64,000 bases of DNA from Dehalococcoidia bacterium (GTDB lineage: Bacteria; Chloroflexota; Dehalococcoidia; Lucifugimonadales; UBA6952): positions 912 to 64,911 of the forward strand of contig JAKUQA010000006.1 of assembly GCA_022450525.1 (NCBI GenBank). Direction: 5' to 3'. This document shows, one piece after another, positions 1,965-53,558 of the stretch. The position numbers and the translations under genes are program-made. How positions within the stretch are numbered: the stretch's first letter is position 1; each line of letters begins with the position of its first letter. The notes beneath the pieces were generated by a model that was given only the letters and a program-made list of their open reading frames with translations, had not been told where the DNA came from and ran no database searches.

Positions 1965-2975
1965 TTATTCAGCGGTGAGTTCTCTATCCATTAATGCAGA
2001 AAATGCATCCATTGGGGAAAGGTTTTCAAATATAATTTGGTAGACCATAGAAGTGATTGGCATTTCTATATTTTTTGATAGAGATATCGAATATATTGCT
2101 TTTGTAGTATTTATACCTTCTGCAACGTTTGTCATATTGTTGGTTATGGAATCAATATTATTACCCATTGCCAGTTGTTCTCCAACATATCTATTTCGAC
2201 TGTAGTCACTTGATATAGTAGTCATAAGGTCTCCAATGCCTGCGAGGCCATAAAACGTTGTTTCTTGGGCATTATAGGCCATTGCAAAGCGTTTTATTTC
2301 TGCAAGACCTCTTGTAACAAGAGCAGATTTAGCATTATTACCAAAATTTAATCCATCTACTATTCCTGCCCCTATGGCAATTATATTTTTAAGTGAACCA
2401 CATAATTCTACGCCCGTAACATCCGAACTTCTATAGACGCGAAATGTTTTGGTAGTGAGCATATTTTGTATATCTTGTGCAGTTTCACTATTTAGGCTAG
2501 CTATTACGGAAGAGGCAGGAAGGCCATTTGCAATTTCCTTTGCTAGATTAGGACCAGATAAAACTGAAAATGTGTTATTTTGATTATAGCTAATATATTC
2601 AGCCGCAACTTCACTCATACGTTTATTAGTTTTAATTTCTATACCTTTTGTTGCGCTAATAATAACCTGATTATCATTAAGATAATTTATAAGATTAATC
2701 ATGTTATCTCTGAAACTATGAGATGGAACAGCAAGTAGAATATATTTAGAATTTTTTATACAAGATTCTAAATCATGATTGATCGTTATACTTTTGGGTA
2801 AAGTGATACCTGGTAAATGTTTTTTATCTTCTCTGTCGTTTCGAATTGATTGGGCTTCAATTTCAGTTCTGGTCCAAATATCTACAGGTGTATTTTTATT
2901 GGCAAGTAGGCAAGCAAGCGTTATTCCCCAACTTGTTGTACCCATAACAGTTACCTTATTTTGCATACTTGTCAC
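1965..2975 (-). CDS. gpsA: NAD(P)H-dependent glycerol-3-phosphate dehydrogenase
   Basis: 336 aa. N-terminal Rossmann segment (VMGTTSWG), LSGPNLAKEIA and GLAGIGDLMTT motifs. 4-nt overlap with upstream plsY. Confidence 0.9.
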   Translation of the reverse strand: MTSMQNKVTVMGTTSWGITLACLLANKNTPVDIWTRTEIEAQSIRNDREDKKHLPGITLPKSITINHDLESCIKNSKYILLAVPSHSFRDNMINLINYLNDNQVIISATKGIEIKTNKRMSEVAAEYISYNQNNTFSVLSGPNLAKEIANGLPASSVIASLNSETAQDIQNMLTTKTFRVYRSSDVTGVELCGSLKNIIAIGAGIVDGLNFGNNAKSALVTRGLAEIKRFAMAYNAQETTFYGLAGIGDLMTTISSDYSRNRYVGEQLAMGNNIDSITNNMTNVAEGINTTKAIYSISLSKNIEMPITSMVYQIIFENLSPMDAFSALMDRELTAE

Positions 2976-3592
2976 AGTTTTTCTCCAAATTTATTTTCAT
3001 TACCCTTTAATAATCTTCCGATATTTTCATGATGTTTAACTACTAATAACGGACCCACAATTAAAGCGTAAAGATAATTATAGTCATTTATAACTGAAAT
3101 AGATTGAACAACAAGGATTATCATTGCAGTTATTGCTCCAAGTATAGAACCTAGAGATACATATCTTGTGATAAATAAAATTGGTAAAAACGTTAAAATG
3201 GCGGCTAACGCTGAAAGAGGATTTAAAACTGTAGCTATACCTACAGCAGATGCAACACCTTTACCTCCCTTGAATCCAGCGAAAATAGGCCAATTATGTC
3301 CAAAAATGATGGCGATTCCACATATAGCTATAAGAATGGCATTGTTTGAGTTAATATCCTCTATGAGCATTAGGTAAAAGATCGGTATAGCTCCTTTTAG
3401 GAAGTCTAATATTAGTACTAATATTGCTGATTTTGTACCAAGTATTCTTAAAGCATTAGTAGCTCCAGTTGACTGGCTTCCATGTTTTCTTATATCTATC
3501 CCTGCTTTTAGTTTTCCAATGATTAAACCGACTGGAATACTGCCTATGAGATAAGAAACCGGTACCATAAGTAATAGTATTTGTTGATTCAT
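2972..3592 (-). CDS. plsY: Acyl-phosphate:glycerol-3-phosphate acyltransferase PlsY
   Basis: 206 aa membrane protein with all three PlsY motifs: GSQSTGATNALR, LDFLKG, GHNWPIFAGFKGGKG. Confidence 0.9.
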   Translation of the reverse strand: MNQQILLLMVPVSYLIGSIPVGLIIGKLKAGIDIRKHGSQSTGATNALRILGTKSAILVLILDFLKGAIPIFYLMLIEDINSNNAILIAICGIAIIFGHNWPIFAGFKGGKGVASAVGIATVLNPLSALAAILTFLPILFITRYVSLGSILGAITAMIILVVQSISVINDYNYLYALIVGPLLVVKHHENIGRLLKGNENKFGEKL

Positions 3593-23905: not shown

Positions 23906-24709
23906 ATGAATTACGAATATGTGAAATTTGAGGTAAAGAATCAAGTTGCATGGGTGACAATAAATAGGGAAGAAGTACGGAATGCTTTACATCAACCAGC
24001 CCATGTTGAGCTTTATAGTATTTGGAACATGATTGATCAGGACCCTAATATTAGAGTCGCAGTATTAACTGGTGCAGGTGACAAGTCTTTTAGTGCGGGT
24101 AATGATCTGAAATTCTCTACTGAATTGGCTAAAAAAGGGTTAGATCACAATAAATTAGGTAATATGCCTTTGGGAGGGTTTGGAGGTATAACGAATCCTA
24201 GATATAGAATGTCAAAACCATTAATAGCAGCAGTAAATGGTTTTGCTTTGGGAGGTGGGTTTGAACTTGCCTTAGCGTGTGACATTATTATCGCTGCAGA
24301 TCATGCCCAATTTGGTTTACCTGAACCAACTGTTGGTTTGGTCGCAGGTGCTGGAGGAATGCATCGACTTCCTAGACAAATTCCTTATAAAGTAGCAATG
24401 GGTATGATGCTTACAGCTAGACGGCTTTCAGCACAAGATGCTTTTGGCTATGGTTTAGTGAATCAAATATGTCCTTTAGATGATTTGTATTCTGTTGTAT
24501 CAGAATGGGCTTCGGATATAATTAAATGTGCTCCATTGGCTATACAAGGAACTAAGGAAGCCTCAACTATAGGATTTGATTTACCTCTTGAGGCTGCATT
24601 TAATAAAACATATTATTGGATAGATTTGCATATGGCATCTCCAGATAGATTAGAAGGAATGAGTGCTTTTGTAGAAAAAAGAAGTCCTCGATGGAAGGGT
24701 AGTGTATGA
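23906..24709 (+). CDS. Enoyl-CoA hydratase/isomerase (crotonase) family protein
   Basis: 267 aa. GAGDKSFSAGNDL and AAVNGFALGGGFELALACD oxyanion-hole motifs. ATGA overlap with the next gene. Confidence 0.88.
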   Translation: MNYEYVKFEVKNQVAWVTINREEVRNALHQPAHVELYSIWNMIDQDPNIRVAVLTGAGDKSFSAGNDLKFSTELAKKGLDHNKLGNMPLGGFGGITNPRYRMSKPLIAAVNGFALGGGFELALACDIIIAADHAQFGLPEPTVGLVAGAGGMHRLPRQIPYKVAMGMMLTARRLSAQDAFGYGLVNQICPLDDLYSVVSEWASDIIKCAPLAIQGTKEASTIGFDLPLEAAFNKTYYWIDLHMASPDRLEGMSAFVEKRSPRWKGSV

Positions 24710-25962
24710 TTTTTAATCATAATGATAAGGGTGAACCTCTTCCATTATCTGGCATTAGAGTAGTGGATTTAACATGGATTGTGGCCGGTCCTCAAACAAC
24801 AAGAATTTTTGCAGATTTAGGTGCTGAAGTTATCAAAGTTGAATATAAAGAATCTCCAGATTACATAAGAGGCGCACCTCCATTTGCAGATAATATATCT
24901 GGGGTAAATAGAAGCGGGTTTTTTAATAATTTAAACCGAAATAAACACTCTCTTTCACTTAATGTTATGCATCCAGATGGAATGGATGTTCTGAAAAATT
25001 TAATTGGTGTTTCAGATATATTAATCGAAAATTTTAGTTCCAAAGTTTTAGATAAATGGGGGCTAAATTATGAGGAACAAATAAAAATAAAACCTGACAT
25101 AATTTACTTAAGTTTGTCTGGATTTGGCCATAGTGGAAGTAAGCAGGACTATACTACTTGGGGGCCTACTGCCCAAGCACTCTCAGGGTTAACATATATG
25201 TCGGGCTCTCCCAATGAATATCCAGCTGGATGGGGGTATTCATTCCTAGACCATACAGCAGGGTATTATGGAGCTATAGCTTTATTATTAGCTTTGCATC
25301 ATAGAAATAATAGTGGAGAAGGACAATCAGTTGATATTTCACAAGTAGAAACTGGTATGGCTCTTACGGGAACTTATTTGTTAGATTATTTTGTGAATGG
25401 TAGAAAATATAAACGAGAAGGAAACCCTCCAGGGAATAGAGCTCGATTTGATATTGTGGCTCCACACAATATTTATCGATGTTATGGAGAGGATCGATGG
25501 ATATCTATAGTAGTTTCAAATGACATCGAATGGAGCATATTTTGCAAAGTAATAAACAGAATCGATTTACTAGAGAACAATTTATTCTCTACCAATACAT
25601 TACGTATAACTAATCAAGATGTTTTAGACCAAGAAATCAGTGAATCTCTCAGGAATTGGAATGCTGATGAATTGATGCATCTATTGCAGACAAAAGGAGT
25701 TAGCGCAGGCCTGGTACAAAATGCAAGAGATAGAGTTGATAATGATATTCAACTTAAAGATCGAAATTATTTTCAAGAAATTGAGCATCCAGAAATAGGA
25801 ACATATAAATTTGATGGATTTCCTGCAAAATTTAATGAGATAGGCCATCATATGAAAAGGTCATCCCCAATAATAGGTCAGGATAGTAAATCAATAATTT
25901 CTGGTTTATTAGGATATAAACAGGAAGATATAGACAGAATGGAAAGCGAGGATGTTTTTTGA
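24706..25962 (+). CDS. Family III CoA-transferase (CaiB/BaiF/Frc type), paralog 1
   Basis: 418 aa. LSGIRVVDLTWIVAGPQTTRIFADLGAEVIKVE N-terminus and GYSFLDHTAGYY (catalytic Asp region). Confidence 0.82.
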   Translation: MIFNHNDKGEPLPLSGIRVVDLTWIVAGPQTTRIFADLGAEVIKVEYKESPDYIRGAPPFADNISGVNRSGFFNNLNRNKHSLSLNVMHPDGMDVLKNLIGVSDILIENFSSKVLDKWGLNYEEQIKIKPDIIYLSLSGFGHSGSKQDYTTWGPTAQALSGLTYMSGSPNEYPAGWGYSFLDHTAGYYGAIALLLALHHRNNSGEGQSVDISQVETGMALTGTYLLDYFVNGRKYKREGNPPGNRARFDIVAPHNIYRCYGEDRWISIVVSNDIEWSIFCKVINRIDLLENNLFSTNTLRITNQDVLDQEISESLRNWNADELMHLLQTKGVSAGLVQNARDRVDNDIQLKDRNYFQEIEHPEIGTYKFDGFPAKFNEIGHHMKRSSPIIGQDSKSIISGLLGYKQEDIDRMESEDVF

Positions 25963-27215
25963 TAAATCAAACTTATGCTTTGAATGATGTTACAGTCTTA
26001 GATCTAACTGATGAAAAAGGTGTGTATACAGGAAAATTACTCGCTGATATGGGAGCAAATGTAATCAGAATAGAACCCTTGTCTGGGAATAAAACAAGAT
26101 TAATTGGACCATTTTTCATGGATAGAGTTAACGAAGAATCTAGTCTATATAATTGGTATCATAACACAAGCAAAAAAAGTATTACTTTAGATATTTCTAC
26201 CAAGGAGGGTATAGAAATATTAAAAAAGCTTTGTCTAAAAGCAGATATCCTTTTAGAATCTTTTGATGATAATTATTTAGAGGGTATAGGTTTAAGTTAT
26301 GATGATATTTCTAAGCAAAATAGCCAGTTGATTTGGACTGCTATTTCAGGTTTTGGAAGGACGGGACCTTATGCAAATTACAAAACAACTGATTTAGTTG
26401 CACTTTCACTTGGAGGCCCTGTCGCTAGTTGTGGATATGATCATCTACCAAACAATCCTCCAATGTGTCCCGATGGTTGGGCTGGATATTATACTGGTTC
26501 GCATTACGCCGCTATTAGTACATTAGTTGCTTTAATCTATCGGGATATGACTAATAGAGGACAATATATTGATGTCTCAATTCACGAAGCAATCTCATCT
26601 TCTACAGAAGCAGCTTTACCTATGTATATCTATCAAAATGCTGTGCCACTAAGACAAACCGGTCGTCATCATAGTATAAATCCTACCCCGCCAGCAATTT
26701 ATAGATGTATGGATGGTGGCATGATCCATGTTTTTGGGACCCCACCACAGGATTTGAATAGATGGTCAAAGTTACTAGAGTGGATTCAAGAATCACAAGA
26801 TGCTTCAGAATTATTTACTCCAAGATATGAAGAAATGGTAACGATGAGAAATAGAGATTCAGATCTCATGTTTACTTTATTTAGTTACATAGGACACTTG
26901 ATAAATTCATTAGATTCTGAATACGTATTCAATAGAGCCCAATCTATTGGATTACCTTGGGGTTTAGTCAGATCTCCAGAAGAAAACGTATCTGATAAAC
27001 ATTTTTGGGAAAGAGGATTTTTTGTTGATATAAGCTCTGAAAATGATGAAAAGCCTTCATATTTCCCAGGAGCACCGTATATTTTTAATAAAACACCCTG
27101 GAGAATTCACTCTTCTGCACCTATATTGGGACAGGATAACGATGAAATTTACAAACTTATGTTGAATTTTACTACTAGTGATATTGAGAAGTTGAAAGCA
27201 AACAAGATAATATAA
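25959..27215 (+). CDS. Family III CoA-transferase, paralog 2
   Basis: 418 aa. VTVLDLTDEKGVYTGKLLADMGANVIRIE N-terminus, same architecture as paralog 1. Start overlaps the previous stop by 4 nt. Confidence 0.78.
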   Translation: MINQTYALNDVTVLDLTDEKGVYTGKLLADMGANVIRIEPLSGNKTRLIGPFFMDRVNEESSLYNWYHNTSKKSITLDISTKEGIEILKKLCLKADILLESFDDNYLEGIGLSYDDISKQNSQLIWTAISGFGRTGPYANYKTTDLVALSLGGPVASCGYDHLPNNPPMCPDGWAGYYTGSHYAAISTLVALIYRDMTNRGQYIDVSIHEAISSSTEAALPMYIYQNAVPLRQTGRHHSINPTPPAIYRCMDGGMIHVFGTPPQDLNRWSKLLEWIQESQDASELFTPRYEEMVTMRNRDSDLMFTLFSYIGHLINSLDSEYVFNRAQSIGLPWGLVRSPEENVSDKHFWERGFFVDISSENDEKPSYFPGAPYIFNKTPWRIHSSAPILGQDNDEIYKLMLNFTTSDIEKLKANKII

Positions 27216-27239: not shown

Positions 27240-27854
27240 TTGGATATTCTAAATACTATATTTTTAATCGTATTTGCTTATTTAGGTGGTTCATTAGTTT
27301 GGGCAAATATAATTACAAAATTTTACAAAAAAGAAATTACAGATTTTGGTACAAATAATCCGGGAACTGCTAATTTTACAAGAGAATTTGGTTTATCTGG
27401 TGGTTTTCTAGTGTTTCTTGGAGATGTTTTTACAGGATTTGTTGTATTTACTATTTGTATTTATTTAACAAACAATCTTGAAGAATTTAAGACACTTTTA
27501 GTAATAACTTTACCCTGTTTTATACTATTAGGTACTTTTTTTCCAGTTTATTTTAAATTTAGAGGAGGAACTGGTCTTGCTAAATGTATTGGAGTATCAT
27601 GTGCAATCAATCCGTTAGCATTTTTAATACTATTTCCAATCATTTTAATTGTTACACTGAAGACTAAAGCTTTTGCTGTTGTAGGGGCTCTTTTTATAAT
27701 TCTTATAGTTTTTTCTTCCATAACAAAATATCAATACAATCTAATGGATCTCAAATATACTTACCCGGATTTACAAGGTTTATTTGCAGTAGCATTGTGT
27801 GGAGTAATGGTTTTACTCAAAGGTATGCATCAATATAAGTTAAGATTGTATTAA
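27240..27854 (+). CDS. Divergent PlsY-like membrane protein (second copy)
   Basis: 204 aa. Same TM layout as PlsY. Recognisable motif 1 (GTNNPGTANFTR) but altered motif 2 (GDVFTG) and motif 3 (GTFFPVYFKFRGGTG). Confidence 0.6.
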   Translation: MDILNTIFLIVFAYLGGSLVWANIITKFYKKEITDFGTNNPGTANFTREFGLSGGFLVFLGDVFTGFVVFTICIYLTNNLEEFKTLLVITLPCFILLGTFFPVYFKFRGGTGLAKCIGVSCAINPLAFLILFPIILIVTLKTKAFAVVGALFIILIVFSSITKYQYNLMDLKYTYPDLQGLFAVALCGVMVLLKGMHQYKLRLY

Positions 27855-33762: not shown

Positions 33763-34953
33763 TTGTTACCTTTAAATGATGTATTAATATTAGAAATAGG
33801 TTCAAGTATATCTGGCTCATATTGTTGTAAAATTTTAGCTGATTATGGTGCTAATATTGTGAAGATAGAAACAATAGACGGTGATTCTATTAGAAACGAA
33901 GAGCCATTTATTACAGATTCTTCAAATGATGATCATAGTACTCTTTTTTTGAGTTTGAATACAGGGAAAAAAAGTATCTCAGTTGATTTTGATAATGAAA
34001 AATCGATAGACATTATTGTTCAACTAGCGCAAAAAGCAGATGTTATCATAGATGGTACTACACCAGGATTTCTTGAAACAAAAGGCTTAATCTTTTCAGA
34101 TTTATTAGAACGCAACCCTAGTCTAGTAATTACTTCAATAACACCATATGGTCAAAGTGGTCCAAATAGTAATTGGGAGTGGTCCCAAATAAGCTTGGAA
34201 GCTTTTGGTGGCAATATGTATGTTAGTGGTGATTATGATGGGGAACCTATGTCATTTGGTGTTCCATTATTTCAATATGTGGCAGGCCAGGTAGCATTAA
34301 GTTCAACAATGATGGCACTTTTATGTGCTGATCGTATTGGAGGCCAATATATTGATGTAAGTATTGCTGAAGTAGTTACTTCATGTATACCCTATGCTTT
34401 ACAATATTATACCTATACAGGAGCTGTTTGGGGTCGTGGGCCTAAAGATCGATTGTTATTTGGTGTAGACTTATGGCCAGCTAGTAATGGCCATGTAGGT
34501 CTTTCAGTAATTCGGAGTACAGATTTCGAAGAAATTGCAGCATTTTTAGGTGTTCCTGAAATGTACGAAGAAAAATTTTCAACACCACAAGGTCGGGAAG
34601 AAAATTATGAAGAGCTAAAATCTTTATATTTGAATCGACTGCAAGAAATAGATAAAGATGATTTTTTTCATGAAGCTCATGCTTGGCGCCTGATGGCTAG
34701 TAGAGAATTAAATCCCAAAGAGTTATTACAGTGTGAACAATTAATTGAAAGAAATTATTTCACTAATATTGATCATGGAACATTATCAGGATTGCCTCAT
34801 GTTTCAAATGTATTAGGTTTAAATACAACTAAAGGTATACCTACAGAAGGTTCTCCATCGCTTGGTCAGCATTCAGAATATATTTTATCAACTATTCTTA
34901 ATTTCGAATCTGATGTTATTCGAGATATGAAAGATAAAGGGGTGATTAAATAA
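33763..34953 (+). CDS. Family III CoA-transferase, paralog 3
   Basis: 396 aa. VLILEIGSSISGSYCCKILADYGANIVKIE N-terminus. TTG start behind a GGGAGGAG SD. Confidence 0.78.
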   Translation: MLPLNDVLILEIGSSISGSYCCKILADYGANIVKIETIDGDSIRNEEPFITDSSNDDHSTLFLSLNTGKKSISVDFDNEKSIDIIVQLAQKADVIIDGTTPGFLETKGLIFSDLLERNPSLVITSITPYGQSGPNSNWEWSQISLEAFGGNMYVSGDYDGEPMSFGVPLFQYVAGQVALSSTMMALLCADRIGGQYIDVSIAEVVTSCIPYALQYYTYTGAVWGRGPKDRLLFGVDLWPASNGHVGLSVIRSTDFEEIAAFLGVPEMYEEKFSTPQGREENYEELKSLYLNRLQEIDKDDFFHEAHAWRLMASRELNPKELLQCEQLIERNYFTNIDHGTLSGLPHVSNVLGLNTTKGIPTEGSPSLGQHSEYILSTILNFESDVIRDMKDKGVIK

Positions 34954-34955
34954 CA

Positions 34956-36338
34956 ATGAATGATAAACTACTACCGTTACAGGGTGTAAGAATAATAGAA
35001 ACATCAGACATACTGGCTTTGCCAATGGCAATGAGTATACTAGGTGATATGGGTGCTGAAATAATTCATGTGGAATATGCACAAAGACCGAACTTTTATA
35101 GGTTTTTAGGTCCTTTCCCTGAAGGAGATCCTGGTATAAATTGGCATGATCGTTCAGGCGCTTTTAATGGATCAAATAGAAGTAAGAAAAGTTTTACCTT
35201 AAACTTGTCAGAAGATAGTGGACGTGATTTGTTCAAACATTTGGTATCTATCTCAGATATTGTGGCAGAAAACTTTTCTGCTAGAGTTATGACAAATTTA
35301 GGTCTAAATTATGAACAATTAAAAGAGATAAAGCCTGATTTAATTATGCTTTCTAATTCTGGATATGGACACACTGGGCCTTGGAAAGATTATGTAGGAA
35401 TGGCACAAGTGATAGAGGCAGCAACTACTTCACATCTTACTGGATTTTCTGATAAAACTCCGAGTAAAGCGGGACAGTCAATTATGGATCTAGTTGTTGC
35501 ATGGAATATAGTAAGTGCAATCAATATGGCTTTATTTCATCGAAATAAAACGGGAGAAGGTCAATGGATTGATCATTCAATGCTTGAAGCTTGCACCCCC
35601 ATAATTAGCTCTCCATTGCTAGATGTTGCATACAATGATAAGTATATTCAAAGGAATGGGAATCGTCATAATACCTATGCTCCGCAAGGTTGTTATCCGT
35701 GCAAGGGTAATGATGATTGGTTTGTTTTAACTATTAAATCAGATGATGAGTGGGGGAAATTTTGTGATTTAGTGAATGATGAAAGTTTATCAGCAAATAA
35801 GTATCCAAAGAATATTGATCGCATGACGAATCATGAAGAAATTGATAATCAAATTAAAAACTGGAGTCAAAATTTATCTAAACAAGAAGTTGTTGAAAAA
35901 CTGCAATCTATAAATATTGCAGCTGCCCCTGTTAATAATTCAAGAGATTTATTACTTGATAAACAATATAAACATCGAGAATTCTTCGAACAGGTAGATC
36001 ATTTCGAAGAAACTAATATAGGTAAACGTATATATTCTGGTCTACCATTTAATATGAGTAAAACAAATGGATTTATTCAAAATCCCACTGCTCCTCTTGG
36101 GTTTCATAATACCTATGTATTATCGGAATTATTGGGGCTCGATGAAGATAATATTCTAGATCTTGAAGACGATGAAGTAGTATCTGAATATAAAAGTGGT
36201 ACGGAAGTACAGGATATGCGTGTTGGAAACATGCCTGCTGGTTATAAACCAGCTTCTCCTTCAAATCAATCACTTATCGATAGAGGAGATGTGAGAGAAG
36301 ATGATACAAATTATAAAAATATTATTGAAGAGTTTTGA
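34956..36338 (+). CDS. Family III CoA-transferase, paralog 4 (with acidic C-terminal tail)
   Basis: 460 aa. LQGVRIIETSDILALPMAMSILGDMGAEIIHVE N-terminus and IMDLVVAWN Asp region. Starts 2 nt after paralog 3. Confidence 0.78.
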   Translation: MNDKLLPLQGVRIIETSDILALPMAMSILGDMGAEIIHVEYAQRPNFYRFLGPFPEGDPGINWHDRSGAFNGSNRSKKSFTLNLSEDSGRDLFKHLVSISDIVAENFSARVMTNLGLNYEQLKEIKPDLIMLSNSGYGHTGPWKDYVGMAQVIEAATTSHLTGFSDKTPSKAGQSIMDLVVAWNIVSAINMALFHRNKTGEGQWIDHSMLEACTPIISSPLLDVAYNDKYIQRNGNRHNTYAPQGCYPCKGNDDWFVLTIKSDDEWGKFCDLVNDESLSANKYPKNIDRMTNHEEIDNQIKNWSQNLSKQEVVEKLQSINIAAAPVNNSRDLLLDKQYKHREFFEQVDHFEETNIGKRIYSGLPFNMSKTNGFIQNPTAPLGFHNTYVLSELLGLDEDNILDLEDDEVVSEYKSGTEVQDMRVGNMPAGYKPASPSNQSLIDRGDVREDDTNYKNIIEEF

Positions 36339-46841: not shown

Positions 46842-48218
46842 ATGTCTACTACAGAAAAATTAGCTAAATTTGTTATTGAATCAAAATTTGATAGCTATCC
46901 TGAAGAGGCTTCAAGCCAAATAAAAAAATCTATTTTAGATGGGATAGGTACATGTTTAGAAAGTACGATTCGTCCAATAGGTAGGATAATCAGTGAATTT
47001 ACAGAAGAATTGGGTGGAAACGCAGATTCTCGATTATTAGGTAGTGGAATTGAAACCTCAGCAGTAAATGCTGCTTTTGCAAATGGTGTATTGACTCATG
47101 GAGCCGATTATGACGATAGTGGTAAAGGTTTCGGTCATACAGCATGTGTTTTAATGCCAACAGTATTAGCCCTAGGGGAACAATATAAACTTAGTGGTAA
47201 ATCTATAATGGATGCATTTACAGTTGGTTTTGAAGTTGGATCAAAAGTTGGTTTAAATATTGGTGCTGACCATTATGAGAGGGGTTGGCATAAAACTTCA
47301 ACTATGGGAGCACTTGGCGGCGCTGCCGCAGCAAGTAGAATTCTAGACTTATCAGTAGATGAGACAAGAGCAGCTCTAGGAATAGCAACTTCAACTGCTT
47401 CAGGCGTTCGTGCAAATTTTGGTTATATGACTAAACCGTATCACCCAGGCAATTCTGCTCGTGGAGGTATTGTTTCAGCTATGCTTGCTAAGAAAGGGTT
47501 TAGTGCAAACCCATCTTCTATTGAAGGCCGTCATGGTTATTTTGCAGTTTTTGGAGATCTACAAGCAAATTTAGATGGTGTTACTGAGAATTTAGGAAAC
47601 CCATTAGCTATATGTAATGCAATACGAATTAAGCCTTGGCCGTGTTGTGCAGGAACTCATGCTGCTTTGACATGTTTGGAGGAGATAAGTGCAGAAACAA
47701 AGATCAATCCAGATGATATTGCTGAAGTTGAGGTATTAATTAGCCAAGAACCATTGGAAATAGCACCTAATATGTGGGATCCTCAAACTGGTTTTAATGG
47801 CAAATTCAGTCTTTGGTATGTAATTGCCGCGTATTTACTGGATAATAAATTAGACATCAATTCATTTAGTGATAGAAAAGTATTAAGATCAAAAGCCCAA
47901 GATTTAATTGGCCGTATCAATATTAAACAACATAACGATTTTGCTCATTTACCATCTCGAGCTATAGAGTCTGCTAGATTTAATGAAATAAGTATAAAGA
48001 TGAATGATGGAACGGTATTGTCACACAGAGTTGAAATTGGTCGTCATTTACAAGGTGAGGACGTTAAAACTAAATTTCGAGATAATGCTAGACTTGCAGG
48101 TCTAAGTAAAGCACAAATAGAAAGACTTATTGGGTTAATTGATAATTTAGAAGACGTTGAAGATGTTACATCCATAGTGGATGCTTCTATAGCAAATGTA
48201 GCTACAGGTATTGATTAG
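46842..48218 (+). CDS. MmgE/PrpD-family protein (2-methylcitrate dehydratase-like)
   Basis: 458 aa. Typical LAKFV....F...P start, GVLTHGADYDD and HPGNSARGG segments characteristic of the MmgE/PrpD family. Confidence 0.75.
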   Translation: MSTTEKLAKFVIESKFDSYPEEASSQIKKSILDGIGTCLESTIRPIGRIISEFTEELGGNADSRLLGSGIETSAVNAAFANGVLTHGADYDDSGKGFGHTACVLMPTVLALGEQYKLSGKSIMDAFTVGFEVGSKVGLNIGADHYERGWHKTSTMGALGGAAAASRILDLSVDETRAALGIATSTASGVRANFGYMTKPYHPGNSARGGIVSAMLAKKGFSANPSSIEGRHGYFAVFGDLQANLDGVTENLGNPLAICNAIRIKPWPCCAGTHAALTCLEEISAETKINPDDIAEVEVLISQEPLEIAPNMWDPQTGFNGKFSLWYVIAAYLLDNKLDINSFSDRKVLRSKAQDLIGRINIKQHNDFAHLPSRAIESARFNEISIKMNDGTVLSHRVEIGRHLQGEDVKTKFRDNARLAGLSKAQIERLIGLIDNLEDVEDVTSIVDASIANVATGID

Positions 48219-48278: not shown

Positions 48279-48680
48279 ATGAAATATACAAAAGAGACTA
48301 TTACAGGTTCTTTCTTGCGTGAGTTTGGGATTTCATCAAAAACTTTAGAACACACGCGAATTATCTTAGTTCGATACATTCCTTTCCCTGCATTTACATG
48401 GCCATCTATATTTGGAAATCCTGTTGTTTTTATCTCTGAGAAGAAACTGAAATTTAATAAAGAAAAACAAATAAAAGATAAGAAAAGCCTCGCTTTTGTA
48501 TTGTATCAGTATTGTCATGCTCATCAATTATTGGAATGGGGTTCGTTTCTTTATCTTTGGAGGCATTTTTATCATAGAATATTTTCGCGTAGCACACCTG
48601 TAAGACATTCGCATGTAGAAAGAGAATGTTATGCAAGGGTAGATGAATTGATGGCTTCTGATATGGAAATAAACAATTAG
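48279..48680 (+). CDS. Hypothetical protein (weak DUF4157/zincin-like resemblance)
   Basis: 133 aa ORF in an especially AT-rich stretch. Pattern LREFGIS..L.HTRII...AFTWPSIFGNPVVF....LYQYCHAHQLLEW loosely recalls DUF4157 domains but lacks an intact HExxH. Coding status is uncertain. Confidence 0.3.
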   Translation: MKYTKETITGSFLREFGISSKTLEHTRIILVRYIPFPAFTWPSIFGNPVVFISEKKLKFNKEKQIKDKKSLAFVLYQYCHAHQLLEWGSFLYLWRHFYHRIFSRSTPVRHSHVERECYARVDELMASDMEINN

Positions 48681-48766: not shown

Positions 48767-49540
48767 ATGATCAACATAGATTTAAATGGGAAAAAAGGTA
48801 TAGTTTTTGGTGTTGCGAATCATAGAAGTATCGCTTGGGCTATATCACAAAAACTTTTAGATGCAGGAGCTGATGTTACAATTGCTTATCAAAATGAACG
48901 CTTCAAGTCTGGAGTCGAAAAACTCATAGACGGTTATAGTAATGCATCGTTAGAAGAATGCGATGTTTCAAGCGATGATTCGATTACAGATTTATTTTCT
49001 AATTTAAAAGATAAATATCAGAACATAGACTTTTTAGTTCATAGTATTGCTTTTGCTCCTAGAGAAGATTTAGCTGGTGATTTTTCTGAAACTTCTCGAG
49101 AAAGTTTTAATATAGCTTTAGAAATAAGCTCTTTTTCATTAATTTCTTTGGTCAATAACGCAACAAAATTAATGAAAAATGGCGGGAGTATTCTTGCACT
49201 TACTTTTCAGGCATCTCAATCTGTATACCCAGGATACAATGTCATGGGTGTAGCCAAAGCTGCTTTAGAAAATGAAGTAAAACAACTAGCAGCTGAATAT
49301 GGTTCTAGAGAAATTAGGGTTAACGCGCTTTCACCAGGTCCTATGGATACGTTAGCTGCTAGAGGCATTCATGGATTTATAGATATGAAAAAGATTCACG
49401 CTGAAAAAGCGCCTTTAAAACGAAATATCACACATGACGAAGTAGGTAATGCAGCATTATTTTTATGTAGTGATTTATCGACAGGTATCACTGGTACAAT
49501 TTTACCTGTTGATGCTGGCTATCACATAATGGCTGTATGA
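48767..49540 (+). CDS. fabI: Enoyl-ACP reductase (NADH), FabI
   Basis: 257 aa. GKKGIVFGVANHRSIAWAI start, HSIAFAP, YNVMGVAKAALE (Tyr/Lys catalytic pair), SPGPMDTLAA. Confidence 0.88.
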   Translation: MINIDLNGKKGIVFGVANHRSIAWAISQKLLDAGADVTIAYQNERFKSGVEKLIDGYSNASLEECDVSSDDSITDLFSNLKDKYQNIDFLVHSIAFAPREDLAGDFSETSRESFNIALEISSFSLISLVNNATKLMKNGGSILALTFQASQSVYPGYNVMGVAKAALENEVKQLAAEYGSREIRVNALSPGPMDTLAARGIHGFIDMKKIHAEKAPLKRNITHDEVGNAALFLCSDLSTGITGTILPVDAGYHIMAV

Positions 49541-50100
49541 GTACTAAGAAACTAAAACTTAAACGTATTCCCGAGGGTAGATCTGGTCATTTTTCTATAA
49601 TTCATCGTTATCACCCTCATCTATACTTCAATGGTAAATATATCCGCTACACAGGCGCTATGTTAATAGACAATGAAACAATGTGGATGAGTGATGGCCC
49701 TGAGGAACGTTTAACAATGTCCAGTGCTGTTCGGTGGTGTCCAAATAATGCAGATGTATTAATTGGAGGGTTAGGGTTAGGTATTGTTCCACGATGGTTA
49801 GAACAAAAAGCTAATTCTATAACGATAGTTGAATTTTCAAGAGATGTAATTAATCTTGTTTATGATTATATTAAAACAGCTAAGATGAAAATAATTCATG
49901 ATGATATAAATAATTATTTAGATAAAACAGAAGAAAAATTTGATTTTGTGTATTTAGATACTTGGCCAGATTTAGACGCCAGTCGATTAGATGAAATTAC
50001 TCACCTAAAAAAATTATCAAAAAATGTTTTAAAAAACGAAAACAGTCGTGTAATTTGTTGGGGTGAAAATGTTGTAAGGAAGGCAGCAACAAAGGTTTAA
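49537..50100 (+). CDS. Spermidine-synthase-like SAM-dependent methyltransferase-fold protein
   Basis: 187 aa. VLIGGLGLGIVPRWL (glycine-rich loop), ITIVEFSRDV, IIHDDINNYL, FDFVYLDTWPD. Confidence 0.5.
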   Translation: MSTKKLKLKRIPEGRSGHFSIIHRYHPHLYFNGKYIRYTGAMLIDNETMWMSDGPEERLTMSSAVRWCPNNADVLIGGLGLGIVPRWLEQKANSITIVEFSRDVINLVYDYIKTAKMKIIHDDINNYLDKTEEKFDFVYLDTWPDLDASRLDEITHLKKLSKNVLKNENSRVICWGENVVRKAATKV

Positions 50101-50993
50101 TTAGTATTTTTGCGTTCTGATTGTCTTGCTCTTCGAATTTCACCAGCTCGTGCCAGAATAGCTCTATTAGATTCATTAACTTCCATATATTCCTTACGCC
50201 ATTCGTGTGTGTGCCATGTATAAGGAGTTTGTATGGATGTTCTAGGAAACTTAGCTTCTTCCAAAAGAGTTAATGCCATCTTCGTAATTTCAATTTGCAT
50301 TTCTGAGTCATATGGCAATCCAACTGGATTACCAAGAGGAAAATCTGAAAATATAAATCTTGGCACTCCACACTGTTCAACTATGTCTCGTGCTGACCCT
50401 ATTATTACTGTAGGAATATTATTTTTTTCAAGATGTCTTGCAATCAAACTCACGGTTTGATGACATACAGGTCACAAAGGAACTAGTAGAGCAACGTCAA
50501 CTTGGTCTAGTTGCATATAATTCAGTATTTCTGGAGCAACATTTTGATTAGTTTTCCTTTGAGAATAATCAGTAGGAGCACCATAAAAGTTTTTTGAAAT
50601 TGATTTTATTACTCCTTCTTCTACAAGAGTTTTAAGATGATCTAATGGGAAAAATGTACCCAAATCATGAGTGTGCGTTGCTTTTTTATCCCATGATCTG
50701 TCCATTGTATAAAGTGCAGGAGGAGTAGGTGTTGTCGGAAAGTGATAAGTAGATCCGATTTGTAATATGCCAGGATCAAAATCAAGTGATATATCAGGAT
50801 TTGGTAAAGATGCAGTAGTTACAAGGCCAACATTACATTCGGACAAAGGTTTAGTTAATTTTTGAAAAGGTACGTGGTCATTTACAGCCCATCGATAAGG
50901 GACTTCATAACCTTGTGCCGCATAAAAATGTCGTGACTTATCAATATATGAAACAGCTAATCTGTAGGCAGGATTAAATTGCTCATCATTCAT
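50097..50993 (-). CDS. GrdB/PrdB-family (glycine/sarcosine/betaine/D-proline reductase protein B-like) selenoprotein, Sec encoded by in-frame TGA at 50472-50474
   Basis: Track ORFs 50472-50993 and 50097-50453 share one frame and are separated only by TGA plus six sense codons (PVCHQT). The joined 298-aa product reads QVDVALLVPL-U-PVC-HQTVSLIARHLEKNNIPTV...FPLGNPVG. This parallels the Sec region I recall from clostridial GrdB (DAVILTST-U-GTC-TRCGATMVKEIERAGIPVV...PLGNP). There is no SD before the GTG of the second ORF, and a SECIS-like hairpin follows the TGA. Confidence 0.8.
50443..50461 (-). promoter_or_regulatory. Candidate bacterial SECIS hairpin
   Basis: On the mRNA: UGA, 10 nt (CCUGUAUGUC), then AUCAAAC-CGUGA-GUUUGAU. 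This is a perfect 7-bp stem with a 5-nt loop containing GU. The lower stem is extendable (G-C, U-A, U.G) past a C/U mismatch. The loop lies about 20 nt from the UGA. Confidence 0.6.
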
Positions 50994-50995
50994 AA

Positions 50996-51964
50996 TTAAT
51001 CTAATCCATATAGTTCTTTAATTTCAGGCACATCATGAAGTTTCAGAGCATTGATTGCATTTTTCCAACAGATTTTATCTAATACTTCATCTTTCCATGG
51101 GAGGGAGAAAAAGAAATTAGTATAATTTGTTAGGTTTAATAGAGGATATGCACTACCAAAAATAAATCTATCTGCTATACCCCAAGAACTATTCACTGCT
51201 TTAACCCAATCTTCAGTACCTAACATAGTCAAATAAGCATCAGGAGATACATATATATTATCTCTTCGCATGCTTGCAATAGTAATAATTTCTCTTATGT
51301 ATGGATAATGGCCATGGCCACAAATTATTGTTAAATCTGGAAAATCATGTGCTACTTGATCAATATATTTAGGATGTGCATAGTCAATATTTAGTCCTCC
51401 TAATGGTCCAGATGTTTGGGGGCTAATTGCTATATCTAAATCAAGGCATTTTTGATATATAGGGTAAAGACGTGGGTCTGCTAGATTATCAGCATAATTT
51501 GGACCTCTACCAGGTTCAATAAATACAACTTTAAATCCTAGTTTTTTACAACGTTCTATTTCTTCTAATGGATCATGAAAAACACCCCATGCATCAATAC
51601 CTGCACATGCTACAAACCTAGCAGGATTTTCCTTTTGGATTTGTGCTTGTTCATCATTAGAAGTTGTTCGTTCTGGAAATACACTATGACCTAAAGTCAT
51701 ACCTTTGTTCATTCCTGATACAGATACGGCTGTTGTTACTCCTGCCTCGTCAAGATCTCGAAAGAATGATTCTATAGAACCATCTTTAAATGCATTTATA
51801 GAATCATAAGCTCCACTATGCTGTGTGCGCTGTCTAAAGTAGTCGGATTGTGAAGCAGTTGTTAATCTACATCGCATATCAATAATTTTTGGTCTTTCAG
51901 ATTTAGGTAGCATATTTGATCCACCACCCATGTCTTGGAATGCTAAAGTATTTTCATTTACCAT
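50996..51964 (-). CDS. Amidohydrolase_2-like TIM-barrel protein (atypical metal-ligand positions)
   Basis: Start set at ATG 51962-64 (MVNENT), behind AAGGTGGGG. The track ORF is 21 codons longer. ICGHGHYPY and RFIFGSAYPL resemble amidohydrolase_2 (ACMSD/LigI type). The usual N-terminal IDxHxH reads IIDMRCRL instead. Ends 2 nt before the selenoprotein gene. Confidence 0.5.
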   Translation of the reverse strand: MVNENTLAFQDMGGGSNMLPKSERPKIIDMRCRLTTASQSDYFRQRTQHSGAYDSINAFKDGSIESFFRDLDEAGVTTAVSVSGMNKGMTLGHSVFPERTTSNDEQAQIQKENPARFVACAGIDAWGVFHDPLEEIERCKKLGFKVVFIEPGRGPNYADNLADPRLYPIYQKCLDLDIAISPQTSGPLGGLNIDYAHPKYIDQVAHDFPDLTIICGHGHYPYIREIITIASMRRDNIYVSPDAYLTMLGTEDWVKAVNSSWGIADRFIFGSAYPLLNLTNYTNFFFSLPWKDEVLDKICWKNAINALKLHDVPEIKELYGLD

Positions 51965-52142
51965 TTTCCCCACCTTTTCATATTTTTGAATGTGTTCATA
52001 GTACAGCGATATAGAAACTTGGTACAAGCATAAAAGTCGTTCTTATTTAATATATGAATAAAACTGATATTCAATCTTGTTATTCGCACGATAGATCAGC
52101 TATAATTTTATAGTTTTAATCAATAATATTGTGGAGAATAAA

Positions 52143-53558
52143 ATGAGTGATAACAAAAGAATAGAACGCGACTCAATGGGTGAAATGGAAGTCGATGCCG
52201 ATGCATACTACGGAGCTTCTACACAACGAGCAGTTCTCAATTTCCCAATTAGTACTTTAAGATTTTCAAAAGAATTTAATAGTAATTTGGCTTTAATTAA
52301 AAAAGTTGCGGCTGAAACCAATATTGAACTGGGATTACTAGATGAAAAATTAGGAAAAGCAATAATTTCTTCTGCAGATGAAGTTATCGAAGGTAAGTTT
52401 GAAGATCATTTTGTTGTAGATATTTTCCAAACAGGTTCGGGAACTTCTACAAATATGAATGCTAATGAAGTTATAGCAAATCGTTCTGCAGAAATACTTG
52501 GAGCAGAACGCGGCTCAAGAGGTTTAGTTCATCCAAATGATCATGTGAATATGGGGCAGTCATCCAATGATGTTATCCCTACAGCTATTCATATAACTGC
52601 TGCTGCAGTTATATCACATTCATTAATTCCTGCTTTAGAAAAATTATCTGCTGTCTTGAAAGAAAAAAGTATAGAATTTTACGATATTATAAAAACAGGA
52701 AGAACTCACTTGCAAGATGCAACTCCTATCCGTTTAGGACAAGAATTTGATGGATATGCAGGACAAGCAGACAGATCGATAAAACGATTACAACATGCTT
52801 TATCAGAATTATGCGAAGTAGCTATAGGAGGAACAGCAGTTGGTACAGGAGTAAACACTCATCCAGAATTTGCTAGTTTAATAAGTCAAAAGCTGAGTAA
52901 GTATTTAAATTTAGAAATTAGAGAAACGAGTAATCATTTTCAGTCTCAAAGTACGTTAGATAATATGGTTGAAGCAAGTGGGGTTACTAAAACTATTGCT
53001 GTTAGTTTATTGAAAATTGCAAATGATATACGTTGGTTAGGATCCGGACCTAGAGCAGGATTTGCTGAAATTTCTTTACCCGAAGTGCAACCGGGTAGTT
53101 CTATTATGCCTGGAAAAGTGAATCCAGTTATTCCAGAGTCAGTTTGTCAGGTAGCCGCTCAAGTAATTGGGAATGATGCATCAGTGACTATTGCTGGTCA
53201 GTCTGGTAACTTTGAAATAAATGTTATGATGCCAGTTGCAGCGTATAATTTAATCCAATCTGTTACTTTATTAGCTTCGGTTATTGATAATTTTGTTGAG
53301 CAATGCCTTCGTGGAATTAAATCAACATCCGCGGGTCCTGACATGGTTGAAAAGGGGTTGGCAATATGTACAGGATTAGTTCCTAGAATTGGCTATGATG
53401 CTTCTGCAAAAATTGCCAAAGAAGCAGAAAAAACAGGTAAAACAGTAAGAGAAGTTGCTAAAGAGCAGACAGATTTAACAGATGAAGAGCTTCAAGAACT
53501 GTTAGATCCTTTTAAAATGACTGAGCCAGGCATTACAGGAGCACCTTCTGGAGGATAA
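52143..53558 (+). CDS. fumC: Class II fumarate hydratase
   Basis: Start set at ATG 52143, behind GGAG. The track begins at GTG 52131. FQTGSGTSTNMNANEVIANR and the GSSIMPGKVNP signature are present. The N-terminal region is FumC-like rather than AspA-like. Confidence 0.85.
   Translation: MSDNKRIERDSMGEMEVDADAYYGASTQRAVLNFPISTLRFSKEFNSNLALIKKVAAETNIELGLLDEKLGKAIISSADEVIEGKFEDHFVVDIFQTGSGTSTNMNANEVIANRSAEILGAERGSRGLVHPNDHVNMGQSSNDVIPTAIHITAAAVISHSLIPALEKLSAVLKEKSIEFYDIIKTGRTHLQDATPIRLGQEFDGYAGQADRSIKRLQHALSELCEVAIGGTAVGTGVNTHPEFASLISQKLSKYLNLEIRETSNHFQSQSTLDNMVEASGVTKTIAVSLLKIANDIRWLGSGPRAGFAEISLPEVQPGSSIMPGKVNPVIPESVCQVAAQVIGNDASVTIAGQSGNFEINVMMPVAAYNLIQSVTLLASVIDNFVEQCLRGIKSTSAGPDMVEKGLAICTGLVPRIGYDASAKIAKEAEKTGKTVREVAKEQTDLTDEELQELLDPFKMTEPGITGAPSGG

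Follow-up and report, generated by a model that had tools for sequence, protein, structure and literature searches.

A stand-alone PrdB-like selenoprotein and its probably incidental RxR amidohydrolase neighbor in a marine SAR202 bacterium

Our subject is a pair of adjacent minus-strand genes in a 64-kb stretch of contig JAKUQA010000006.1 (hereafter the window, 64,000 nucleotides), which encode an Amidohydro_2 TIM-barrel protein and, directly downstream of it, a selenocysteine (Sec)-containing protein related to PrdB. The original prediction had taken the two genes for a coupled, possibly new reductive system in a marine, aerobic-type heterotroph. The host is indeed of this type, a SAR202 bacterium (Chloroflexota) from Tara Oceans surface metagenomes. 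We find two native genes under purifying selection, arranged head to tail, which probably do not constitute a dedicated system: the downstream gene belongs to a stand-alone Sec family, and the upstream gene, an amidohydrolase of a subfamily with an RxR motif, is its incidental neighbor.

The selenoprotein reading frame contains a single TGA, at codon 174, in the context DVALLVPL-U-PVCHQTVSLIARHLE. The motif around it, LLVPL-U-PVC-HQT, is of the UxxC type (U174-P-V-C177), and UGA174 aligns with an invariant cysteine of full-length homologs that carry Cys in place of Sec (Cys forms). At 78 genome loci containing the motif, which span Chloroflexota, Acidimicrobiia, Myxococcota, Desulfobacterota-type metagenome-assembled genomes (MAGs), Spirochaetes, Alpha- and Gammaproteobacteria, and Methylomirabilia, the Sec-position codon is TGA in 67 cases and TGC or TGT in 11. 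A hairpin of the selenocysteine insertion sequence (SECIS) type is located 10–34 nt past the U of the UGA. Its stem, AUCAAAC/GUUUGAU (+13 to +19 and +25 to +31), closes a CGUGA loop, stem and loop together spanning 50443–50461, and outer G-C and U-G pairs extend the helix to the limits given in Table 1. Locus L001 shows a compensatory change from U-A to C-G in this stem. A comparison of 71 distinct sequences of Sec forms shows that compensatory changes are made through synonymous codons: positions +17 and +27 form G-C in 55 sequences and A-U in 11, and positions +14 and +30 form C-G in 59 and U-A in 6. The GU of the loop never varies. Sec forms encode Val-Ser as GUG-AGU, whereas Cys forms carry Ile-Ser as AUC-AGC, which breaks the stem (window 50441–50462, compared across loci L007 to L093). 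Given this systematic difference, the SECIS requirement affects both which codons are used and the identity of one residue in the protein. Compared with a sister population, the part of the gene upstream of the UGA has a ratio of nonsynonymous to synonymous substitution rates (dN/dS) of 0.063, and the part downstream one of 0.074. UGA174 is decoded as Sec with the aid of the downstream SECIS hairpin, and the gene encodes a genuine selenoprotein.

The Pfam GRDB profile (PF07355) matches the selenoprotein with 23.6 bits (cut-off 22), over profile positions 202–345 of 347 only. The NCBIfam PrdB model (TIGR04483) aligns residues 43–261 with model positions 20–235 of 238 (E = 5.5e-28), at 98 bits compared with an equivalog cut-off of 300. 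The GrdH, GrdF, GrdB, and selenoprotein-B models all return 29–42 bits, far under their cut-offs (28.7 versus 602 bits for GrdB, 30.8 versus 65.45 bits for the selenoprotein-B subfamily TIGR01918), with betaine GrdH as the best Grd-type match at 42 bits. The protein had been described as short and PrdB-sized, and its 298 residues do match the C-terminal half of GrdB or the whole of PrdB. With PrdB from Clostridium sticklandii and Clostridioides difficile it shares near-full-length homology, Sec in a UxxC motif, and likely a redox cycle of Sec attack and Cys resolution. It differs from PrdB in its score, in the absence of prdA and prdC/D/E/F from the window, in the aerobic-type hosts, and in conserved segments of ∼42 N-terminal and ∼37 C-terminal residues that its family adds. 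The homology with GrdB, GrdF, and GrdH (PF07355, TIGR01917/01918) covers their C-terminal half; compared with GrdB (∼430 residues), the window protein has no N-terminal half, and GrdA/E/C/D are not encoded in the window. Since the scores lie far below the equivalog and subfamily cut-offs, the stand-alone PrdB-like proteins are, as judged from sequence, a separate paralogous family, whose members are related along their entire sequence to PrdB and to GrdB's C-terminal half.

A word-indexed search returned 1910 homologs of the selenoprotein, mostly of ∼295 residues and with Cys at the Sec position. Cluster representatives number 3001 at E ≤ 1e-3, 1360 at E ≤ 1e-10, and 248 at E ≤ 1e-30, and many of them end at profile position 167–168 or begin at 171 or 176, as expected when gene prediction breaks off at the Sec codon. 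The window protein carries both family-invariant motifs, (U/C)PVCHQ(T/S) and DFPLGNPxGxP. Beyond the redox motif, invariant residues are found at the N terminus (Tyr-16, Arg-21, Tyr-24, Tyr-33, and Trp-35), in the segment S144-x-R146-x-T148 (SQRxT), and in D217-F-P-L-G...G225-x-P227. Cys forms are present in Bordetella bronchiseptica and Bradyrhizobium, aerobes that are not known for Stickland metabolism.

The selenoprotein family is not new either: it has been catalogued in marine surveys since 2005 as “proline reductase PrdB.” The Sargasso Sea survey listed 42 Sec genes under this name, making it the third most abundant family there (PMC1088965), and the Global Ocean Sampling survey 235 Sec and 110 Cys sequences with a relation to pfam07355 and a UxxC motif (PMC2398784). 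The window gene is a member of this family and differs from it in nothing of kind: both have the pfam07355 relation, a length of ∼300 residues, the UxxC motif, and a SECIS element directly downstream, and the survey family occurs in Sec and Cys forms and is abundant in surface-ocean bacteria. The surveys assumed a proline reductase function. Our data argue against the name, which is probably a misnomer because the scores are sub-threshold, PrdA is absent from the window, and no conserved partner was found. In a 2026 review, the D-proline reductase entry still names only the clostridial enzyme (PMC13188914), and literature searches for SAR202 together with selenocysteine, or for the function of PrdB homologs in aerobes, returned nothing relevant.

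As a structural stand-in for the window protein we used the AlphaFold2 model of a natural Cys homolog (P0006, 58% identity). The model (mean predicted local distance difference test score, 89.7) has an α/β fold in which the redox motif follows a strand and lies at the start of helix 171–186. A sequence search of the PDB with the family profile gave no match at E ≤ 1, and a Foldseek search of the model against the PDB nothing at E ≤ 0.001; the best template-modeling scores, ∼0.2–0.3, belong to generic Rossmann, B12-binding, or periplasmic-binding folds. In the absence of a significant fold match, the structure provides no functional lead.

The genes surrounding the relatives of the selenoprotein are heterogeneous and include α/β hydrolases, luciferase-like monooxygenases, acyl-CoA dehydrogenases, HpcH aldolases, and FAD oxidases. 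Clustering of neighbors places any one family at no more than 8 of 82 loci. Among 140 immediate neighbors from 80 genomes the top Pfam family, α/β hydrolase, occurs five times, and Gly_reductase, GrdA, and thioredoxin are not among the 25 most frequent of the 150 families matched. Within the window, a Pfam scan of all open reading frames (ORFs) of at least 100 codons detected no GrdA, GrdE/PrdA, GrdC/D, thioredoxin, thioredoxin reductase, or SelA/B/D, tblastn of the window with TrxA, TrxB, and glutaredoxin gave no match, and no tRNA gene was found. The description of the selenoprotein as an orphan is therefore borne out, in the window as well as among the relatives surveyed, whose loci show no conserved gene partner. 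Two alphaproteobacterial MAGs encode a 79-residue glutaredoxin (PF00462, CxxC) 1–4 nt downstream of a Sec form (L084) and of a Cys form (L085), a hint at a candidate reductant, and a flavin reductase gene downstream of the PrdB-like gene at locus L177 may likewise hint at thiol recycling. Rare fusions were also observed. An AMP-binding (adenylate-forming) enzyme precedes the PrdB-like domain in P0243 (514 residues) and P0244 (805 residues), one of which is full length, and in P0259 (480 residues) the PrdB-like domain is joined to a Ser/Thr protein kinase domain. These fusions may be functional clues or gene-call artifacts.

We surveyed the pairing of the two genes from both sides. A scan of 185,579 species genomes located 80 PrdB-like loci (42–63% identity), none of which has an RxR amidohydrolase within its 6-kb flanks; at two of them a distant Amidohydro_2 gene (23% identity) is found nearby. 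In the other direction, a metagenome profile scan together with three exact look-up loci yielded 78 RxR amidohydrolase loci (45–62% identity), and none of these has a PrdB-like gene within 5 kb. The pair is also absent in Bradyrhizobium and in a 55%-identical relative. Only ∼10 contigs were seen to carry the pair; they come from Tara and other marine metagenomes and belong to the window's own SAR202 population or to a sister population. Their amidohydrolases are 98–100% and their selenoproteins 89–100% identical to the window proteins, and the two genes are 4 nt apart in the sister population.

The clearest case is a further contig, L174 (ENA ERZ27247716 k141_1122270), which encodes a Sec-form protein with 80% identity to that of the window. 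On this contig, whose first 330 nucleotides correspond to window positions 50990–52130, the fumarase gene again lies divergently, with the intergenic region and ribosome-binding site (RBS) of the window. The first ∼10 codons of the amidohydrolase gene (MVNENTLAF) are retained and then run into a stop, leaving a 13-codon remnant ORF (MVNENTLAFYDIN*); the body of the amidohydrolase is missing, and the selenoprotein gene starts 5 nt past the stop of the remnant. The UGA and the entire frame of the L174 selenoprotein are intact, and its dN/dS against the window (0.068) equals the value in the paired lineage. L174 acts as a naturally occurring variant from which the amidohydrolase was deleted or into which it had not yet been inserted. 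That its selenoprotein remains whole and under the same constraint implies that the protein works here both with the amidohydrolase and in its absence, whether the difference arose by deletion or by insertion. The amidohydrolase is very likely not an obligate partner of the selenoprotein; the two genes came to lie side by side in a single SAR202 lineage, and the selenoprotein can do without this arrangement.

The upstream gene product belongs to the Amidohydro_2 family (PF04909; 78.1 bits, cut-off 26.4). At its N terminus, IIDMRCRL is found where IDxHxH is expected, and GSAYP is located near the C terminus. Relatives with 45–68% identity from Chloroflexota, Acidobacteriota, and Betaproteobacteria all share an N-terminal IIDxRCR and a C-terminal (G/A)(S/T)AYP. 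Arg-31, Cys-32, and Arg-33 are invariant in 20 of 20 homologs, and RxR is present in 74 of 75 motif matches from the 78 loci (RCR in 65, RLR in 7, and RTR in 2). In these 75 matches the strand-8 residue is Ala, Cys, Gly, Ser, Asn, or, once, Arg, and never Asp. In alignments with 3NUR (AADYP) and ACMSD (GTDYP), the Ala of GSAYP occupies the place of their metal-binding Asp; the strand-5 His of ACMSD has no counterpart in the window protein, and the strand-6 His is retained (His-217). RCR corresponds to HxH by position only, as the profile alignments begin at residue ∼46–60. The claim that this protein has lost the usual metal ligands thus stands, with this limit at HxH, and applies to the whole subfamily.

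The closest solved structure is that of BB4693 from Bordetella bronchiseptica (3IRS, 3K4W; profile E = 5e-57), an uncharacterized Amidohydro_2 protein for which we found no paper. BB4693 has GTAYP and thus likewise Ala in place of the strand-8 Asp; its N terminus lies outside the alignments, and the likeness rests on the remaining sequence. ACMSD, LigW, LigY, LigJ, γ-resorcylate decarboxylase, and LigI belong to the same PF04909 TIM-barrel family and share the strand-6 His. The window protein differs from the metal-dependent members and from LigI in having RCR at the HxH position, no strand-5 His, and Ala for the strand-8 Asp. The metal-independent LigI keeps its His and Asp residues. The RxR clade no longer has the strand-8 Asp or the strand-5 His, and by position RxR stands in for the expected HxH; with these changes the clade probably acts without a bound metal.

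The usual neighbors of RxR amidohydrolases are of another kind than the selenoprotein: a TctC/Bug solute-binding protein gene is found at 31 of the 78 loci, a tandem paralog at ∼25, MmgE/PrpD at 8, and an enolase-superfamily gene at 7. This context, with RLR and RTR among the paralogs, points to a role in organic-acid catabolism that is independent of the selenoprotein. At L115, L120, L131–L135, L152, and L153 (for example, L133:5040–7700), two or three RxR paralogs follow one another in tandem, in the order RCR, RLR, RTR, and a TctC/Bug gene commonly precedes them. These arrays may represent a hetero-oligomeric, metal-free enzyme of carboxylate catabolism. A different arrangement is seen on a 1-Mb MAG contig (L011:5879–6973), where the RxR amidohydrolase gene overlaps by 4 nt a 364-residue ATP-grasp/PylC-like ORF (weak Pfam match) and is followed by MmgE/PrpD and sugar-modifying genes, a context unlike the TctC type. 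We considered the Cys of RCR as a pyruvoyl precursor or as a redox partner of Sec and rejected both as a general idea, since RCR is replaced by RLR or RTR in paralogs and the amidohydrolase family shows no linkage to PrdB-like genes.

For the selenoprotein we tentatively propose a Sec/Cys two-electron reductase that would be recycled by a general thiol system. Sec-174, at the N terminus of a helix that follows a β-strand in a Rossmann/flavodoxin-like fold, would act as the nucleophile on an electrophilic substrate. Cys-177 would then resolve the Sec-174 adduct, yielding a selenenylsulfide, which thioredoxin or glutaredoxin encoded elsewhere in the genome would re-reduce. Such a cycle would be akin to the last steps of PrdB, but would proceed without pyruvoyl activation by PrdA, so that no pyruvoyl partner would be required. 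With so many invariant polar residues, a particular small molecule is a more plausible substrate than disulfides in general.

Two alternatives concern the nature of the selenoprotein. If the TGA were a true stop, the locus would consist of two short ORFs or a pseudogene, and gene calls on public contigs do split it into hypothetical proteins of 173 and 118 residues; moreover, neither Sec machinery nor tRNA-Sec is encoded in the window. We consider this reading practically negligible, because at 67 loci spread over many phyla the TGA falls exactly at the conserved Cys position, the SECIS hairpin shows conservation and covariation, in-frame constraint continues past the TGA (dN/dS 0.05–0.07), and the 118-residue ORF would require a GTG start within conserved sequence. 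It is also highly improbable that the protein serves as the actual B subunit in a D-proline, glycine, or betaine reductase whose other components (PrdA/GrdE, GrdA, GrdC/D, and the thioredoxin system) are encoded elsewhere in the genome. The full-length homology to PrdB, the shared UxxC motif, and the name PrdB used by sources and surveys (PMC1088965, PMC2398784) speak for such a subunit. The scores far below every equivalog and subfamily cut-off speak against it, as do the lack of prd or grd genes in the window and of Gly_reductase and GrdA among the most frequent neighbor families, and the extra conserved terminal segments. The Cys forms in Bordetella bronchiseptica and Bradyrhizobium, aerobes not known to perform Stickland reactions, likewise do not fit a reductase of this type.

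The remaining question is whether the two genes cooperate in this lineage. Several points weigh against an incidental pairing and against the chemistry outlined above. L174 is a single 1.2-kb metagenome contig, the pair is retained across sub-lineages at a synonymous divergence (dS) of ∼0.6–0.85, and this retention, the 2-nt spacing, and the shared strand would fit a functional link at this locus. A specific substrate is implied by the invariant polar residues found elsewhere than in the redox motif (SQRxT, DFPLGNPxGxP, Tyr-16, Arg-21, Trp-35); the chemistry and the substrate are inferred, as we found neither a solved structural relative nor an informative gene context, and a pyruvoyl protein or other partners could be encoded elsewhere in these genomes. 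A lineage-specific coupling would place both proteins in one pathway within this SAR202 clade, for example with the TIM-barrel protein opening or isomerizing a ring or carboxylate and the selenoprotein reductively cleaving the product. It would account for the same strand and short gap (4 nt in the sister population) without an internal promoter or terminator signal, and for a pair of genes that are both under purifying selection and kept together between populations ∼12% divergent in DNA. We nevertheless regard coupling as unlikely: the pair is missing from all 158 other loci, counted from both sides, selection on the L174 selenoprotein is not relaxed although the amidohydrolase body is missing there, and RxR amidohydrolases recur in a context of their own, with TctC and tandem paralogs. 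The constraint on the two genes also differs strongly (dN/dS 0.011 for the amidohydrolase and 0.068 for the selenoprotein), which is not suggestive of co-evolving subunits. Less probable still is a combination of both ideas, in which a self-sufficient Sec/Cys reductase would work without a pyruvoyl partner and the RxR amidohydrolase would have been recruited upstream in this SAR202 lineage to supply or process its substrate. A pyruvoyl partner would be unnecessary in this scheme because the substrates would carry a good leaving group at the α-carbon; they would include onium-type marine osmolytes, as with betaine reductase, whose GrdH is the best Grd-type match. If true, it would represent a new aerobic route for reductive C–N or C–S cleavage of abundant dissolved organic compounds. 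We therefore retain the reading of two native genes that are neighbors and not a dedicated system; the pairing surveys and L174 do not support the coupled reductive system that had been proposed.

The layout of the locus is summarized in Table 1. The two-gene arrangement and the convergent ORF downstream of it were confirmed at the predicted coordinates, with the qualification that this ORF is methyltransferase-like below threshold only (Pfam Spermine_synth, 21.2 bits; cut-off 22.9). The genes of the pair are separated by 2 nt (50994–50995), and the convergent ORF overlaps the selenoprotein stop codon by 4 nt. The intergenic region presumably holds the promoter of the two-gene unit, and the two genes are probably co-transcribed. 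A consensus scan found fewer promoter-like sites than in shuffled sequences and no terminator, and is uninformative for a low-GC Chloroflexota genome; no Rfam family matched positions 49500–52500. Neither the GC profile nor the identity profile between the window and L001 gives a sign that one of the two genes was recently acquired. Compared with most homologs, which begin at MIIDxRCR, the amidohydrolase ORF is extended by 25 residues at its N terminus. An internal ATG at 51913 (Met-18) is preceded by GGTGGTGGA and may be the true start; the first 26 codons differ from L001 at 2 nt, one of them non-synonymous.

Table 1. Coordinates of the features at the amidohydrolase–selenoprotein locus (window numbering)
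Feature	Coordinates	Strand or position	Remarks
Amidohydrolase gene, Amidohydro_2, 322 residues	50996–51964	minus	ATG at 51964, stop TAA at 50996–50998
Selenoprotein gene, 298 codons, stand-alone PrdB-like family	50097–50993	minus	ATG at 50993, stop at 50097–50099
In-frame UGA, codon 174, Sec of UPVC/UxxC	50472–50474	minus	translation and alignment with Cys homologs
SECIS-type hairpin	50440–50464	minus	fold and covariation
Divergent intergenic region, RBS AAGGTGGGG	51965–52130	between amidohydrolase and fumarase genes	sequence, conservation in L174
Class II fumarase gene	52131–53558	plus	divergent from amidohydrolase gene
Class I methyltransferase/spermidine-synthase-like ORF	49537–50100	plus	convergent, outside the two-gene unit

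By Pfam, the rest of the window contains a typical SAR202 gene set, with an enolase-superfamily protein, four family III CoA-transferases, methylmalonyl-CoA mutase, MmgE/PrpD (46842–48218, three genes from the amidohydrolase), an amidase, rpoB/C, FtsH, and fumarase. A 133-residue ORF without a Pfam match (48279–48680, plus strand), which is gene-called in all sister contigs, lies in the fastest-diverging stretch nearby, with 76–78% nucleotide identity to L001 compared with an average of ∼88%. Two PlsY-type (G3P_acyltransf) genes are found at 2972–3592 and 27240–27854, and the four CoA-transferase paralogs (24706–27215 and 33763–36338) adjoin enoyl-CoA hydratase and HMGL-like genes; this is consistent with the paralog expansion typical of SAR202.

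Taken together, our analysis does not support the proposed two-gene reductive system, and the locus should not be pursued as one. Within a metalloenzyme family, the RxR Amidohydro_2 clade clearly exemplifies a branch free of metal ligands, and a solved but uncharacterized structure (3IRS) is available for it. The selenoprotein represents an abundant surface-ocean family that surveys have called “proline reductase PrdB” since 2005 and that here comes without proline reductase partners. Its Cys forms in the culturable aerobes Bordetella bronchiseptica and Bradyrhizobium make the question of its function accessible to genetics.

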